DNA of 64,000 bases from Syntrophales bacterium (GTDB taxonomy: Bacteria; Desulfobacterota; Syntrophia; Syntrophales; PHBD01), in the NCBI GenBank assembly GCA_963668175.1, contig OY764159.1:1676077-1740076 (forward strand), written 5' to 3'. Position numbers and translations under genes: made by a program. Shown here piece after piece: positions 7,002 through 57,805 of this stretch; positions within the stretch are counted from its first letter, which is position 1; each line of letters begins with the position of its first letter. The notes under the pieces were generated by a model, which ran no database searches, was not told where the DNA came from, and saw only the letters and a list, made by a program, of their open reading frames with translations.

Positions 7002-8378
7002 ATGTACCGCTATAAGCTACTCATCGTCGACGACGACCGGTTGCTGCAGAATTCTCTGAACAATATCCTTTCGGAGAATTACGACGTCATGATCGCCGGC
7101 AGCGGTGAGGCCGCCCTGCAGATCCTGAAGAAACATACGGTGGATCTGATCCTGCTGGATATCAGGCTGCCCGGCATCGACGGGGTGGAGACGCTCCGCC
7201 AGATAAAAAACGGCGACAACAGTACGGGTGTGATCATGATGACGGCTTACGAGGACATCAAGACCGTGATCACCTCGATGAAGAACGGCGCCGCGGACTA
7301 TCTGGTGAAGCCCCTCGATATCGAGGAACTGGAGATCATCATCGAAAGGGCGCTGGAAAACATCCGCCTGAAGCGTGAACTGGAAGAACTCAGGAAACAG
7401 TACATCCAGGAATTCGACATCGACCAGATCGTGGCTGAGAGCCAGGGCATCAAGAACGCCCTGAAACTGGCGAACACCATTGCCCAGAGCGACGATACGA
7501 CCGCGCTGATCGAGGGCGAGACGGGAACGGGCAAGGAGGTCATAGCCCGGACGATCCACTGCAACAGCCGTCGCTTCGGGAAGCCCTTCGTTAGCATCAA
7601 CTGCGGGGCGATCAGCAAGGAACTGATCGAAAGCGAACTCTTCGGCTACGAAAAAGGGACGTTCACGGGCGGCCTGCAGGAAGGTAAGAAGGGAAAGATC
7701 GAACTGGCCGAGAGCGGGACCCTTTTCCTCGACGAGATCAGCGAACTTCTCCCGTACTCGCAGGTCAACCTGCTCAGGTTCCTGGAAGAGAGGGAGTTCT
7801 ACCGGGTCGGGGGGACGGAGAAGCGCAAGGTCGACGTGCGGATCATCGCCGCCACGAACAAGAGCCTGGAGGAAGGTATCGCGAAGGGCACCTTCCGGAA
7901 AGACCTCTATTACCGTCTGAACGTGGCCAAGATATTCCTGCCGCCGCTTCGGGACCGGAAGGCCGACGTCATCGCCCTCGTCCGCTTTTTCATGAACAAG
8001 TTCAACGAAAAGTTCGGCAAGAATTTCCGCGGGGTATCCAAAGAGGCCCAGGCGCATCTCCTCAATTATCCCTGGGTGGGCAACGTCCGGGAGCTCCGTA
8101 ATTGCGTCGAAAGGGTGATTCTCGTCGAGAACGACACGGAGATCCGGCCGGAACATCTCCTGTTCTTGAACCACCAGCTCGACACCCATCTGCCCGCCAC
8201 TTTCGAGCCGGCATGGAGCCTTCCCCCTGCGGGGATCGACCTGGACGAACTTATCAAGAAACTGATCCTGCAGGCCCTGGAGCGGGCGCACGGCAACAAA
8301 GCCCAGGCCGCCAAACTCCTCGGCATGTCCCGGCCGACTATGATCTACCGTATCGAAAAGTACGGCATCAAAATTTAG
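7002..8378 (+). CDS. sigma-54-dependent response regulator (NtrC/Fis family)
   Basis: REC domain (LIVDDD..D), AAA+ sigma-54 interaction domain (GETGTGKE, GAFTGA-like ESELFGYEKGTFTG), C-terminal Fis HTH. Confidence 0.9.
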   Translation: MYRYKLLIVDDDRLLQNSLNNILSENYDVMIAGSGEAALQILKKHTVDLILLDIRLPGIDGVETLRQIKNGDNSTGVIMMTAYEDIKTVITSMKNGAADYLVKPLDIEELEIIIERALENIRLKRELEELRKQYIQEFDIDQIVAESQGIKNALKLANTIAQSDDTTALIEGETGTGKEVIARTIHCNSRRFGKPFVSINCGAISKELIESELFGYEKGTFTGGLQEGKKGKIELAESGTLFLDEISELLPYSQVNLLRFLEEREFYRVGGTEKRKVDVRIIAATNKSLEEGIAKGTFRKDLYYRLNVAKIFLPPLRDRKADVIALVRFFMNKFNEKFGKNFRGVSKEAQAHLLNYPWVGNVRELRNCVERVILVENDTEIRPEHLLFLNHQLDTHLPATFEPAWSLPPAGIDLDELIKKLILQALERAHGNKAQAAKLLGMSRPTMIYRIEKYGIKI

Positions 8379-8585
8379 CAGGCCGCGCCCCCTGCATGGG
8401 GGCAGTTGAAAAACGCCCATCTGCAGCGTTGCGTTTCGCCCCGCGGGTGCTCACGTACCTTGTAGTACGCTCCGCTCCGCGATGCTCGCGCGCCTTGCAT
8501 ATGGACATTTTTGAACAGCCTGTTCAGAATCTCGTTTTAGCAGGCCGCGCCCCCTGCATGGGGGCAGTTGAAAAACGCCCATCTG
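8376..8585. repeat. MITE-like intergenic repeat element, copy A (about 110-bp core flanked by a perfect 49-bp direct repeat)
   Basis: TTAGCAGGCCGCGCCCCCTGCATGGGGGCAGTTGAAAAACGCCCATCTG occurs twice (8376-8424 and 8535-8583); the core shares conserved blocks, including the palindrome TTGAACAGCCTGTTCA, with the inverted copy at 56640-56812. Confidence 0.6.
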
Positions 8586-8599
8586 TCGCACTTCAATTC

Positions 8600-9853
8600 C
8601 TATCCCTGCCGACCGCGCACTTCCTTGACAAAAAGAAAGAAGACGACGGCCGCTCCGGCCATGGCCGCATCCAGCAGGAAGGCCCAATGGTAGCTTCCAA
8701 GCGTATCCCGGACGGCGCCGCCGGCCCAGTGGGAGAGGATGGCCCCCGCGCCGTACAGGGGCGTCCAGACACCGATGACGGTGCCGATCAGCGGCCGCGG
8801 AAAATAGTCGCCGGCGCAGGCGCCGTAGATAGGGAATGTTGCGCCGTAGACGATCGCCAGGGCGCCCACCAGACAGGGGAGTACAATCGTTCCCGTACCG
8901 GCGGCGACGATCAGAAAGAGGACGATGGCGAGAAATACGTTTGCACAGAGGATAGTTCGCCTCCGGCCCAGGCGGTCCGAGAGGGGCAGAATCGTGAGGA
9001 CTCCCAGAACCTGAAAGATGCCGTGAATCGTGGCGAGAAAGCTTGCCGCTCCGAGGGAGAGGCCGGCTTCGCTGCGGGCGTAATCGACCATGAAGGTCGT
9101 AAATCCGTAAAGGGCGAAGGCGACCGAGAAGTAGGAGCCGCCTATCCACCAGAAGATCGGGTTCCGGAGAACGGCCGTAAATGGTCCGGCGGAGGCCGGA
9201 CCGGATGAAGGCGGCGGGACTGCGGCACAGCCGTCCTTATCTCCCCAGGGGACCGTGCCCGAGGATTCGGGAGTGTTCCGAAGGACCGCGGCGTTGACGG
9301 CGACCAGGGCAAGGGCAGCTCCTCCCAGGGCGAGCCATGTCCAGCGCCAGTCGTAATGGGCCGCGACGAAGGGAAAGATGGCGCCGACGGCGGCAAAGCC
9401 CAGCCCGTATCCTGTGCCGAGAATACCGAGGGCGAGGCCGCGGCGACGCGGGGAAAACCACCGCTGGATCACGGCCAGGACCGGGGTCCAGATGCCTGCG
9501 GCCCCGGCTCCCGCGAGGGCATACGCCAGGCACGCCTCACCGAGGCCCGACGCTTTCGACAGGAGCAGAACACCGGAGCCCAGGACGGCAAGACAGACGG
9601 GGATGACAAGCCGGACGCCGATGCGGTCGGCGAGGAATCCGGCGACGGGTGCGAGGCAGATATACGCGCCGAGATAGGCATTGTAGATCGTGCCGCCGGC
9701 GGTGCGGGAGAGGCCCATGTCGCGGATCATCTCCGGCAGGACAACGCCGTAGCCCAGGCGGACCGAGTAATTGATGAAGATGTCCAGAAAGCCGGCGCCC
9801 AGGATGATCCAGGCCCAGTGCAGGACTCTTCCCTGAGTCGATCGGGATGGCAT
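8600..9853 (-). CDS. MFS transporter
   Basis: 12 TM helices, MFS-like loop motifs; six-frame ORF starts with TTG at 9898, first ATG at 9853; neither has a clear RBS. Confidence 0.8.
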   Translation of the reverse strand: MPSRSTQGRVLHWAWIILGAGFLDIFINYSVRLGYGVVLPEMIRDMGLSRTAGGTIYNAYLGAYICLAPVAGFLADRIGVRLVIPVCLAVLGSGVLLLSKASGLGEACLAYALAGAGAAGIWTPVLAVIQRWFSPRRRGLALGILGTGYGLGFAAVGAIFPFVAAHYDWRWTWLALGGAALALVAVNAAVLRNTPESSGTVPWGDKDGCAAVPPPSSGPASAGPFTAVLRNPIFWWIGGSYFSVAFALYGFTTFMVDYARSEAGLSLGAASFLATIHGIFQVLGVLTILPLSDRLGRRRTILCANVFLAIVLFLIVAAGTGTIVLPCLVGALAIVYGATFPIYGACAGDYFPRPLIGTVIGVWTPLYGAGAILSHWAGGAVRDTLGSYHWAFLLDAAMAGAAVVFFLFVKEVRGRQG

Positions 9854-9994
9854 GCGTTTTTGGAATGAGAGTATATGAGGTGCCGGCCGGGTTGTCAATG
9901 GGCGATATGCCGGTCGCCGTTCCTCGGCAGGAGGGGAGAGGCCTCCGGCCGAAAGGCGGCCGAAGGCGATATTTCCCCGCCCCCCGATTCGTTC

Positions 9995-40239: not shown

Positions 40240-40420
40240 ATACCTTATCCTCTTCCATCCGGACTGTAACCGTCGGCCCTGGCTTCGCACCAGGTCTGCT
40301 GTCCCCCTGCCGGAAGCAGGGGCGCTCGCGGGCTCCCCGGAATAGTCCGGGATACCGCCGGTGGGGAATTCCACCCCGCCCTGAGAATAGGCTGCTGTCC
40401 GGATATAGGAAGAGGAGGCC
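40240..40420 (-). ncRNA. FMN riboswitch (RFN element) in ribB leader
   Basis: minus-strand sequence CAGGGCGGGGTGGAATTCCCCACCGGCGGTA...AGCCCGCGAGCGCC...GACAGCAGA...GAAGCCAGGGCCGACGGT..AGTCCGGATGGAAGAGGATAAGG matches conserved RFN blocks. Confidence 0.8.
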
Positions 40421-56427: not shown

Positions 56428-56456
56428 TTGACTTTTCCCCGCATGGTTGCTATATT
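56428..56456 (+). promoter_or_regulatory. sigma-70-like promoter TTGACT-17-TATATT
   Basis: near-consensus hexamers with 17-nt spacer; no annotated gene for about 450 nt downstream except the repeat element. Confidence 0.35.
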
Positions 56457-56639
56457 CCTGAAACGGATACCTTTATCGGCCGGTTGTGTCGCGCCCGCAG
56501 GGATGGCGAAAAAATCTTTTGTGCGTCGAGGCAGTGTGGCGGTATCCTTGAGAGGCGAGATCGTTGCGGAAAGACGGACGATAAACCAGCAGCGGTAAGC
56601 CCCGCGTAGTTTCGGCCTTTCCATACGGCAGTTCATTCG

Positions 56640-56812
56640 GGCCATGAACCTTAACTGCTTGTTGAAAAACTCGATTTTGAACAAGCTGTTCAAAAATGTC
56701 CAGATGTAAGGCGCGCAAAAGCTGAGGAAAGAGGCATACATAGAAGTATGTCGATTGACGAGGCTTGCAGCGCAACGCAACAGATGGGCGTTTTTCAACA
56801 GCCTGTTAAACG
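56640..56812. repeat. MITE-like intergenic repeat element, copy B (inverted relative to copy A, terminal inverted repeats CTGTTGAAAAAC / GTTTTTCAACAAG)
   Basis: shares GTTGAAAAACGCCCATCTG...GCGTTGCG and GCGCGCCTT.CAT.TGGACATTTTTGAACAGC.TGTTCA.AATC blocks with 8401-8530 in reverse complement. Confidence 0.6.
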
Positions 56813-56932
56813 TCGGCGGCAGGGGAATTTCCCCGCACCCCGCCGGGAGAACCATCGGGGGTCGGCCGCCGGGTTGACCCTTTTTTTGTAAGTTTTGACG
56901 GCAGCAGAAGAGAAGACGGAGAAGATTTCAAC

Positions 56933-57805
56933 ATGAAGTACGAAGGCATGATCATCAGGCCCCCCAGCGAGGCAGACAGCCTGCTTATACAGGTCACCGT
57001 GGGGTGCTCCAACAACAAGTGCACCTTTTGTCCAACCTACAAGGAGAAAAAATTCCGCATCAAGGACGACGAGGAGATCGCCGAGGACATCCGGGAGGCA
57101 AGCCGCTACGGCCGCATCCCGCGGGTCTTCCTCTGCGACGGCGACGCCCTCATCATCCCCCAGAAGAGGCTCGTCGGCATCCTGGGCGCCATCGGCGCGA
57201 AGATCAAGGGCGTCGAGCGCATCGGCACCTACGCCAACGCCAAGAGCATCCTGAAGAAAACGCCGGAAGAACTGGTCCGCCTGCGGGAGCTGGGACTCGG
57301 GATTGTCTACATGGGCGTCGAGACGGGGAATGAAGAGTTGCTTACCGCCATCAACAAGAAGACTGATTTCGGCAAGCTCGTCGAGGCGGGACGGCGTGTG
57401 AAGGAGGCGGGCATCACGCTTTCGGTCACGGTCCTGCTCGGCATCGGCGGCATCGAGAAGTCCGTCCAGCATGCCCTCGACACGGCGAAGGTCCTCACGG
57501 CAATCGACCCGGACTACGTCGGGGCGCTCACCGTCATGGTGGTGCCCGGCACGCCGCTCCACGACGAAATGCTCGCCGGGCGCTTCGTCCTGCCCGACAC
57601 CTTCGGGTTCCTCAAGGAGTTGGAGCTGATGATCGCCCATTCCGATTTCACGCACTGCTTCTTCACGGCCAACCACGCCTCCAATTATCTGCCGATCAGG
57701 GCGTGGATGCCGGAAGAGAAGGAAGAGACGCTGCGCCGCATACGCGAAGTCATTGCCAACCGCGACAAATCGAGGCTCAGGCCGGAATTCATGCGGGGGC
57801 TGTAA
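56933..57805 (+). CDS. radical SAM protein
   Basis: Cys cluster CSNNKCTFC near the N-terminus, glycine-rich SAM motif GDALI. Confidence 0.8.
   Translation: MKYEGMIIRPPSEADSLLIQVTVGCSNNKCTFCPTYKEKKFRIKDDEEIAEDIREASRYGRIPRVFLCDGDALIIPQKRLVGILGAIGAKIKGVERIGTYANAKSILKKTPEELVRLRELGLGIVYMGVETGNEELLTAINKKTDFGKLVEAGRRVKEAGITLSVTVLLGIGGIEKSVQHALDTAKVLTAIDPDYVGALTVMVVPGTPLHDEMLAGRFVLPDTFGFLKELELMIAHSDFTHCFFTANHASNYLPIRAWMPEEKEETLRRIREVIANRDKSRLRPEFMRGL

Follow-up and report, generated by a model that had tools for sequence, protein, structure and literature searches.

The closest described parallels to the element reported here, a hairpin-forming repeat present as copies A and B in a stretch of 64,000 nt from a Syntrophales bacterium (the window; contig OY764159.1), are found among the miniature inverted-repeat transposable elements (MITEs) and the extragenic repeats of other bacteria. 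Correia elements (CREE/NEMIS) of Neisseria and MITEs derived from insertion sequences (RUP, Nezha) are 100-160 bp long, have terminal inverted repeats and short TA-containing target-site duplications (TSDs), and frequently lie near gene ends; some Correia copies also carry outward promoter-like sites. Correia elements duplicate TA in an IS630-like manner. Bacterial interspersed mosaic elements (BIMEs) are arrays of repetitive extragenic palindromic (REP) sequences with linker motifs. The REP/REPIN-RAYT systems are extragenic hairpins with long persistence, whose presumed substrate is a single-stranded form of one specific strand, and the termini of GTAG REPs are reported to supply stop codons of flanking open reading frames (ORFs) (PMC3733652). 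Enterobacterial repetitive intergenic consensus (ERIC) sequences, or intergenic repeat units (IRUs), are imperfect palindromes of ~125 nt whose sequence is highly conserved across species; they lie intergenically in transcription units in either orientation, have variants with internal insertions and are regarded as MITEs. Delihas has reviewed these elements (PMC2229807, PMC2759123).

Our analysis indicates that copies A and B are very probably members of an apparently undescribed MITE family of Syntrophales with a hairpin-forming body of ~125-150 bases. The Syntrophales are key syntrophic degraders of fatty acids and aromatic compounds and are known mostly from metagenomes. Apart from the TA duplication of Correia elements, the arrays of REP sequences in BIMEs and the GTAG tag, the Syntrophales family shares the traits listed above with the respective systems, and it departs from each of them in others. 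Unlike ERIC, it has an unrelated sequence, a different host clade, a documented 4-bp TSD and third, outer terminal repeat, and a pairing conserved on a single strand, regardless of which way the surroundings are transcribed. In contrast to Correia elements, its TSD is 4 bp long and YTAR-like, its body is a covarying conserved hairpin and not a spacer, and only 6 of 83 copies have an outward promoter-like site. It differs from REP/REPIN in lacking a GTAG or CGTC tag, in its much longer unit and in having TSDs, and no RAYT gene was present among the genes scanned. Composite members, in which small nested hairpin modules recur across loci, recall the mosaic build of BIMEs, but in the Syntrophales family the modules sit in one long hairpin whose ends are fixed. 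The kind of family, a MITE, is known, and in style it comes nearest to ERIC and Correia elements; the hairpin kept on one strand only and the constraint in place after insertion are its unusual parts.

An exact-pattern scan of 185,579 representative genomes recovered three true copies. They belong to two metagenome-assembled genomes (MAGs), one from an uncultured member of the Syntrophaceae and one labelled Deltaproteobacteria, and a profile search found an additional copy on locus L002 that lies outside the exact pattern. A degenerate pattern for either arm occurred in at least 120 stretches of metagenome contigs. We fetched 124 loci (664 kb) from among the matches listed, and the family counts below refer to these loci. 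With five copies as the basis of an nhmmer profile, 120 of the 124 loci gave matches, at 137 places that do not overlap. Of these places 95 are near full length, and the E-values fell as low as 1e-47. In the window the profile found copies A and B, a partial third left end, and nothing more. The best named relatives of the flanking proteins came from Syntrophaceae and Syntrophus MAGs. An earlier note on this DNA had called the repeat MITE-like and non-autonomous and had proposed a count of copies elsewhere. More than 130 copies with conserved ends lie in other contigs, and the family has terminal inverted repeats, 4-bp TSDs, filled and empty sites and no adjoining transposase, which bears out that description. 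The case that the note had named as a refutation, two copies in all and no conserved ends elsewhere, therefore does not apply. Rfam had no match to the element, either in the window at the gathering threshold or for copy B at E-values up to 10 (the best hit, sroD, scored 16.4 bits against a threshold of 50). Searches of the full-text literature under the element sequences or Syntrophus MITEs returned no description of the family, and a BLAST search of plasmids and phages with copy B as the query turned up no relevant hit, the single match being a chance one of 39 nt in nuoG.

Coordinates refer to the window, and we call the orientation of copy A the F strand and its complement the R strand. 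Copies A and B are 48 kb apart, mutually inverted, and align as two near-identical end blocks flanking a divergent centre, as had been noticed before; these blocks occur above chance (GTTGAAAAACGCCCATCTG three times in the window against 0.01 expected, TGGACATTTTTGAACAGCYTGTTCA twice against 0). Members of the family have 16-nt terminal inverted repeats (SAGSCTGTTGAAAAAC), and the ends CAGGCTGTTGAAAAAC and GTTTTTCAACAGSCTS were recognisable with at most 4 mismatches in 44 copies. The long form starts with a 4-nt flank, continues with CAGGCTGTTGAAAAAC running into the arm GCCCATCTG, and then has a helix core with an apical CGTAC-loop-GTACG. After the core comes an inner arm, CATCTGGRCRTTTTTGAACAGCCTG, whose pairing partner is the left end; 8-12 nt of spacer separate this arm from the outer repeat GTTTTTCAACAGSCTS, which is followed by the same 4-nt flank. 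The left end recurs, inverted, as the inner arm, which makes the entire body a single long imperfect hairpin, and the end sequence is found for a third time in the outer right repeat. The hairpin core is 101-224 nt long, to which long forms add ~25 nt of spacer and outer repeat, and many copies stop at the inner arm (short forms) or carry a decayed outer repeat. The element has the conserved end CAGGCTG, and the YTRR that flanks it on the left varies in sequence. The palindrome TGAACA-N3-TGTTCA (TGAACAGCCTGTTCA), which the earlier note had suggested as a possible protein-binding site, is not a family feature, as just 4 of 84 copies have it; it arises where the inner arm, with its self-complementary CAGSCTG, is followed by TTCA, and is a by-product of the inverted arm. 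A LexA (Cheo) box was considered for this palindrome and rejected, the spacing being N5 and not N4 and the motif being specific to a subfamily.

Several lines of evidence show that the element has moved. The same 4 nt were found directly outside both terminal repeats in 25 of the 44 copies, compared to 3.9 +/- 1.8 (maximum 10) in 1000 shuffled flank pairings, and an alternative version of the test gave 18 of 34 against 2.9 by shuffling. TTAA, TTAG, CTAG, CTAA and TTGA are common among them, GAAA, TCAG and TACA also occur, and the spectrum is mostly YTAR-like. IS5-type enzymes use a 4-bp YTAR target. These tetranucleotides vary between copies and are thus target duplications and not element sequence. 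Filled and empty versions of the same site were also observed. Locus L079 is filled (TTAA...TTAC) and the 93%-identical L051 is empty, with a single TTAT. The copy A site is filled in the window and in L127, where the regulator upstream is 95% identical, and is empty in L125, L128 and L129 (regulator 96%, 89% and 88% identical), which read ctgTAG and then unrelated sequence. The copy B site is empty in L130-L132, where the adjoining radical S-adenosylmethionine (SAM) protein is 86-87% identical. Taken together, the target duplications and the empty sites demonstrate dispersal by transposition.

Two of these empty sites have features of their own. In L130-L132 (~2368-2385, corresponding to window 56650-56810) the terminal 7 nt of the repeat, CAGCCTG, are kept between the left flank and TTAT; judged from the sequence, this looks like an excision footprint or, alternatively, a target that mimics the element end. 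In L125 (4378-4561), the closest ortholog by its regulator, both the element and the major facilitator superfamily (MFS) gene next to it (window 8379-9898) are missing and a cytochrome c3 gene directly follows the regulator, indicating that the junction has been rearranged among close relatives.

To describe the gene context we called genes with a purpose-made scorer of ORFs based on codon usage. In 35 of 54 cases in which the upstream gene runs in the F direction, its stop codon was between -13 and +4 nt relative to the left end, and downstream starts were often within 4-35 nt of the right boundary. Co-directional neighbours read in the F sense at 26 copies and in the R sense at 18, and there were a further 18 convergent and 15 divergent settings. 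The abutment on TAA, TAG or TGA stop codons is explained by the YTAR target preference together with selection against disruptive insertions in tight operons, since an element that enters the TA(A/G) of a stop codon and duplicates 4 bp does not alter the protein. By landing on the stops and intercistronic gaps of housekeeping operons, the element adds 125-nt hairpins to many transcripts. It also complicates the assembly and annotation of Syntrophales genomes and could be used as a marker of the clade. Nine of ten genes scanned between or next to copies had Pfam matches, mostly to housekeeping proteins (MoaA-like, RF-1, PrmC, an EPSP-synthase-family enzyme, HisD, flavin reductase, YchF, an HD response regulator and FabH). 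No transposase adjoined any copy in the fetched loci, and all-against-all clustering of 531 neighbouring proteins gave no recurrent neighbour family, the largest cluster covering 11 of ~120 loci.

The two strands of the element are not equivalent. The R strand (CAGGCTGTTCAAAAATG...; the plus strand of the window for copy B, the minus strand for copy A) is the better-folding RNA strand, with folding z-scores of -6.1, -6.5 and -4.1 against -2.2, -4.3 and -2.2 for F; for copy B the values are -6.07 on the plus strand of the window and -2.15 on the minus strand. Across 65 copies RNAalifold gave -43.2 kcal/mol for R and -14.8 for F. In a MAFFT alignment of 63 distinct copies, used for the covariation test, the R-strand consensus has 40 pairs with 96.5% of cells paired and double changes at 20 pairs (136 cells); none of 500 shuffles was as good and slid controls reached at most 43%. 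A compensatory change also separates the window copies, copy B having CATAC/GTATG at the apical-stem position where copy A has CGTAC/GTACG. The non-Watson-Crick cells were G.U on the R strand in 216 cases and on the F strand in 30. This held where neighbours are transcribed in the F direction (3.8 vs 0.3 G.U per copy) and in the R direction (3.1 vs 0.5). No sigma-70-like promoter is conserved on either strand, and none that would drive the better-folding strand; an outward TGGACA-17-CARAAT site occurs in 6 of 83 copies, including A and B. The asymmetry, being the same in both transcription classes and having no conserved promoter with it, is a property of the element and not of selection on local mRNA. 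It points to a stage in which the R strand is single-stranded, as DNA or RNA. Two known RNA motifs compared by eye were rejected: the required A15.1 and stem order of the hammerhead ribozyme (CUGANGA...GAAA) do not fit, and neither does the bulge/GA geometry of the K-turn.

The element also diverges slowly once it is in place. Between the window and L127 it differs at 11 of 167 aligned positions (0.066), compared to 42 of 193 4-fold degenerate sites (0.218) in the adjacent gene (Fisher p = 4e-5), a rate about three times lower. Two other orthologous pairs agree, with 90% identity in the element and 74.5% in the flanks for L045/L099, and 88% and 80% for L052/L107; closer pairs were uninformative on constraint. 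Judged from these alignments, the slow divergence would reflect either purifying selection or conversion between copies. Together with the covariation on one strand, it makes the family a test case for whether ERIC-like or MITE hairpins are kept for their own propagation or for a function in the host.

The family thus has the marks of a MITE: terminal inverted repeats, a TSD of fixed length, small non-coding dispersed copies, and presence or absence at orthologous sites. The elements insert with a 4-bp duplication, mostly at YTAR-like tetranucleotides, and the duplications, of a kind typical of IS5-type enzymes, suggest that they are moved in trans by a transposase making 4-bp staggered cuts. 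The ~125-nt hairpin body may be needed as a single R strand at some stage of the life of the element, and after insertion it may be maintained by selection or by conversion between copies. Several observations weigh against this account. Neither the conservation of the hairpin on one strand, independent of flanking transcription, nor evolution in place at a slower than neutral rate is expected of an inert MITE mobilised by a DDE enzyme. No autonomous element with these ends was found in the 664 kb of loci, where we looked for inverted end pairs 0.7-3 kb apart. The short forms have no target duplication at the inner-arm boundary. The window holds only two copies and the exact pattern only three (in two MAGs) among 185,579 representative genomes, and the context statistics come from the gene calls of a simple, purpose-made ORF scorer. 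The one end pair that could have marked an autonomous element, in L066, was rejected as a chance match inside an ORF for an ABC permease of the FtsX/LolE type. A bolder version of the MITE reading is that propagation of the element, in spite of its DDE-like terminal repeats and TSDs, requires one particular strand to fold in single-stranded form, be it DNA or RNA, and that the structure then comes under purifying selection in housekeeping operons. We consider this version rather unlikely; if true, the family would be a MITE that must pass through a single-stranded stage of one defined strand, or a mobile structural module of RNA or DNA that has been domesticated.

The conservation of structure on one strand, independent of flanking transcription and without a conserved promoter on either strand, is also what a REPIN- or IS200/IS605-like element would show, in which an HUH (Y1) transposase, for example a RAYT, moves a hairpin in the form of single-stranded DNA and the terminal repeats are the arms of the hairpin. 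Several features of the family fit such an element: neighbouring copies in one locus are mostly co-oriented (11 shared, 3 opposed), the short forms and a variant with the termini GACGGCTTCGTAAAAAG/CTTTTTACGAAGCCGTC lack target duplications, and REP termini likewise supply stop codons (PMC3733652). The long forms, however, have variable 4-bp target duplications; neither a GTAG nor a CGTC tag occupies a fixed position at the ends; the unit is ~125 nt and not 20-40 nt; and there was no recurrent neighbour and no Y1 transposase gene among the ten flanked genes scanned. To our knowledge, HUH single-strand transposition makes no such target duplications. We regard mobilisation of this kind as improbable.

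A different explanation for the pairing is that the copies work as RNA, either as genes for structured small RNAs or as cis-regulatory elements (mRNA stabilisers or processing sites, for example), and that dispersal is secondary. The strong covariation with variable loops and inserted helices, the divergence of orthologous copies below that of 4-fold sites, and the positions in 3' untranslated regions, in intercistronic gaps and, for copy B, in a promoter-to-terminator leader are all compatible with an RNA function. Against such a function, the copies show no preference of orientation (the sense strand is the weaker-folding one in 26 of them and the better-folding one in 18), an equal G.U asymmetry in both orientation classes, no conserved promoter, no association with a gene family and no Rfam match, and the target duplications and empty sites show that dispersal is by transposition. 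An RNA role as the primary explanation is therefore very improbable. Integron attC-like recombination sites, which would share the one-strand folding, the stop at the left boundary with the next start 4-30 nt past the right boundary in several loci, and the mostly common orientation of neighbouring copies, are contradicted by the tests made and have next to no likelihood: the GTT box lies 5' and the AAC box 3' on both strands, opposite to the R''/R' order (R'' RYYYAAC 5', R' GTTRRRY 3'), most of the flanked genes scanned have housekeeping roles and belong to conserved operons rather than to cassettes, the window copies are 48 kb apart and inverted, 4-bp target duplications are present, and no integrase gene was seen.

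Copy A lies between the convergent genes for a sigma-54 response regulator and an MFS transporter. It had been described as bracketed by a perfect 49-bp direct repeat that includes the upstream TAG stop. The repeat is indeed exact and includes the stop, but it is 50 bp long (TTTAGCAGGCCGCGCCCCCTGCATGGGGGCAGTTGAAAAACGCCCATCTG, at 8374-8423 and 8536-8585, spacing 162) and starts within the final codons and TAG stop of the regulator gene. The GC hairpin reported inside it is present in both repeat copies, as GCCCCC-TGCAT-GGGGGC; it has no U-run, and it is absent from the empty orthologous sites. Its position is within the terminal repeat, between CAGGC and GTTGAAAAAC. In L127 the corresponding sequence reads TAG-CAGGCTGTTGAAAAACGCCCATCTG, uninterrupted, then the body, and then ...CTCGTTT-TAG-CAGGCTATTGAAAAACGCCCATCTG-TCGCGC; the left end stands there twice in direct orientation (TAGCAGGCTGTTGAAAAACGCCCATCTG and TAGCAGGCTATTG...; 28 nt, one mismatch), both times lacking the GC hairpin. 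Relative to L127, the window has the same 21-nt insert, CGCGCCCCCTGCATGGGGGCA, after CAGGC in both left-end copies, an insert that is absent from the rest of the window and from the fetched loci. Because L127 has the same arrangement without the hairpin, the 50-bp repeat is the left end of the element present twice, with a hairpin nested in each. As read from this alignment, copy A is a rearranged member consisting of a complete left end and body, a truncated right end, and then a second direct copy of its own left end. The stump of the outer right repeat was assigned by comparison with long forms reading GAACAGCCTG-N8-12-GTTTTTCAACAGSCTS. An element followed by a direct partial left end, including a few flank bases, recurs in L021 and L054. 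The GC hairpin could possibly have reached both left ends by conversion between the repeats or by repeated site-specific insertion. The idea of insertion into a terminator with a long target duplication is contradicted by the L127 arrangement, by the empty sites without a hairpin and by the lack of a U-run, and the direct repeat should not be annotated as a terminator duplication.

Copy B is a complete long form. Inverted ends of 12-13 bp had been reported for it within 56640-56812; the inverted ends stand, and the better bounds, which have TTAA flanks, enclose 16-nt ends, CTGCTTGTTGAAAAAC and GTTTTTCAACAGCCTG, that match the family ends at 13 of 16 positions. The features of both copies and of their surroundings are listed in the table.

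Table. Positions of copies A and B, of features around them and of the variant members (window coordinates unless a locus is named)
Feature	Position	Strand	Remarks
Sigma-54 response regulator gene	7002-8378		Stop codon TAG at 8376-8378
TTAG outside left end of copy A	8375-8378	+	Holds the TAG stop of the regulator gene
Copy A, left end	8379-8423	+	Terminal inverted repeat CAGGC/GTTGAAAAAC split by the 21-nt GC hairpin (8384-8404), then left arm GCCCATCTG; basis: L127 alignment and family consensus
Copy A, core	8424-8497	+	Covarying internal helices and apical stem-loop CGTAC-CTTGTA-GTACG (8454-8469)
Copy A, inner right arm	8498-8522	+	CATATGGACATTTTTGAACAGCCTG; pairs with the left end; palindrome at 8512-8526 located here
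Outward sigma-70-like site of copy A	8502-8530	+	Weaker-folding strand
Copy A, spacer and start of stump	8523-8536	+	TTCAGAATCTCG and the first TT of the truncated outer right repeat (GTTTT); the rest of the stump overlaps the next part
Second TTAG	8537-8540	+	Precedes the second left-end copy
Second partial direct copy of TTAG and left end	8537-8585	+	GC hairpin again at 8546-8566
MFS transporter gene	8600-9898	-	
FMN riboswitch (RF00050)	40243-40392	-	108.9 bits, threshold 66.2
Leader region 5' of radical SAM gene	56428-56888	+	Non-coding; promoter 56428-56456, terminator 56857-56882
TTAA target-site duplication, copy B left	56651-56654		Flagged by the family-wide TSD test
Copy B, complete long form	56655-56805	-	Profile score 152.5 bits
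Copy B, outer terminal repeat	56655-56670	-	
Copy B, spacer	56671-56681	-	
Outward sigma-70-like site of copy B	56702-56674	-	Weaker-folding strand
Palindrome in copy B	56678-56692		
Copy B, hairpin arm	56682-56706	-	
Copy B, apical stem-loop	56735-56750	-	
Copy B, hairpin arm and terminal repeat	56781-56805	-	
TTAA target-site duplication, copy B right	56806-56809		
Radical SAM gene	56933-57805		
Variant member with GACGGCTTCGTAAAAAG/CTTTTTACGAAGCCGTC termini	L052 9253-9357		
Variant member with GACGGCTTCGTAAAAAG/CTTTTTACGAAGCCGTC termini	L054 969-1068		
Variant member with GACGGCTTCGTAAAAAG/CTTTTTACGAAGCCGTC termini	L107 145-250		
Variant member with GACGGCTTCGTAAAAAG/CTTTTTACGAAGCCGTC termini	L069 9488-9617		

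Members of the family vary in their ends, in their internal modules and in their spacing. In the variant members of the table the core is the same, the termini are different but complementary, and a target duplication is not visible. Composite copies have additional small hairpin modules nested in several places inside them. The modules GGCCGCCTCACCGTCTCGGCGGCGTGGCAA, GTAGGGAACGCATATATGCGTTCCCTAC and GCCCCCGCAAACGGGATTTCGCAAGGCTCAAC recur in different members (L106, L101, L119, L120, L076, L053/L059 and others) and differ between near-identical orthologous loci (L110 vs L119, L033 vs L120); they seem to have been gained and lost independently. Three head-to-tail copies, 20-45 nt apart, lie directly 3' of a FabH-like gene in L097 (2079-2510), with a fourth in the same orientation 5 kb away.

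The outward sigma-70-like sites of the window copies read TGGACA-17-CAGAAT/CAAAAT. Transcription from the site in copy A is predicted to run antisense to the MFS gene. Copy B lies inside, and interrupts, the conserved leader upstream of the radical SAM gene, which extends from a promoter (TTGACT-17-TATATT with TG) to an intrinsic terminator. The orthologous leaders (L130 2232-2452; L131 and L132 2233-2452) are ~185 nt long, well conserved and predicted to be structured, and the uninterrupted orthologous leader had no match in Rfam. In the window, where copy B interrupts it, the 5' half of the leader has diverged. This region could be an undescribed leader or a small RNA. The flavin mononucleotide (FMN) riboswitch is the sole Rfam match in the window at the gathering threshold.

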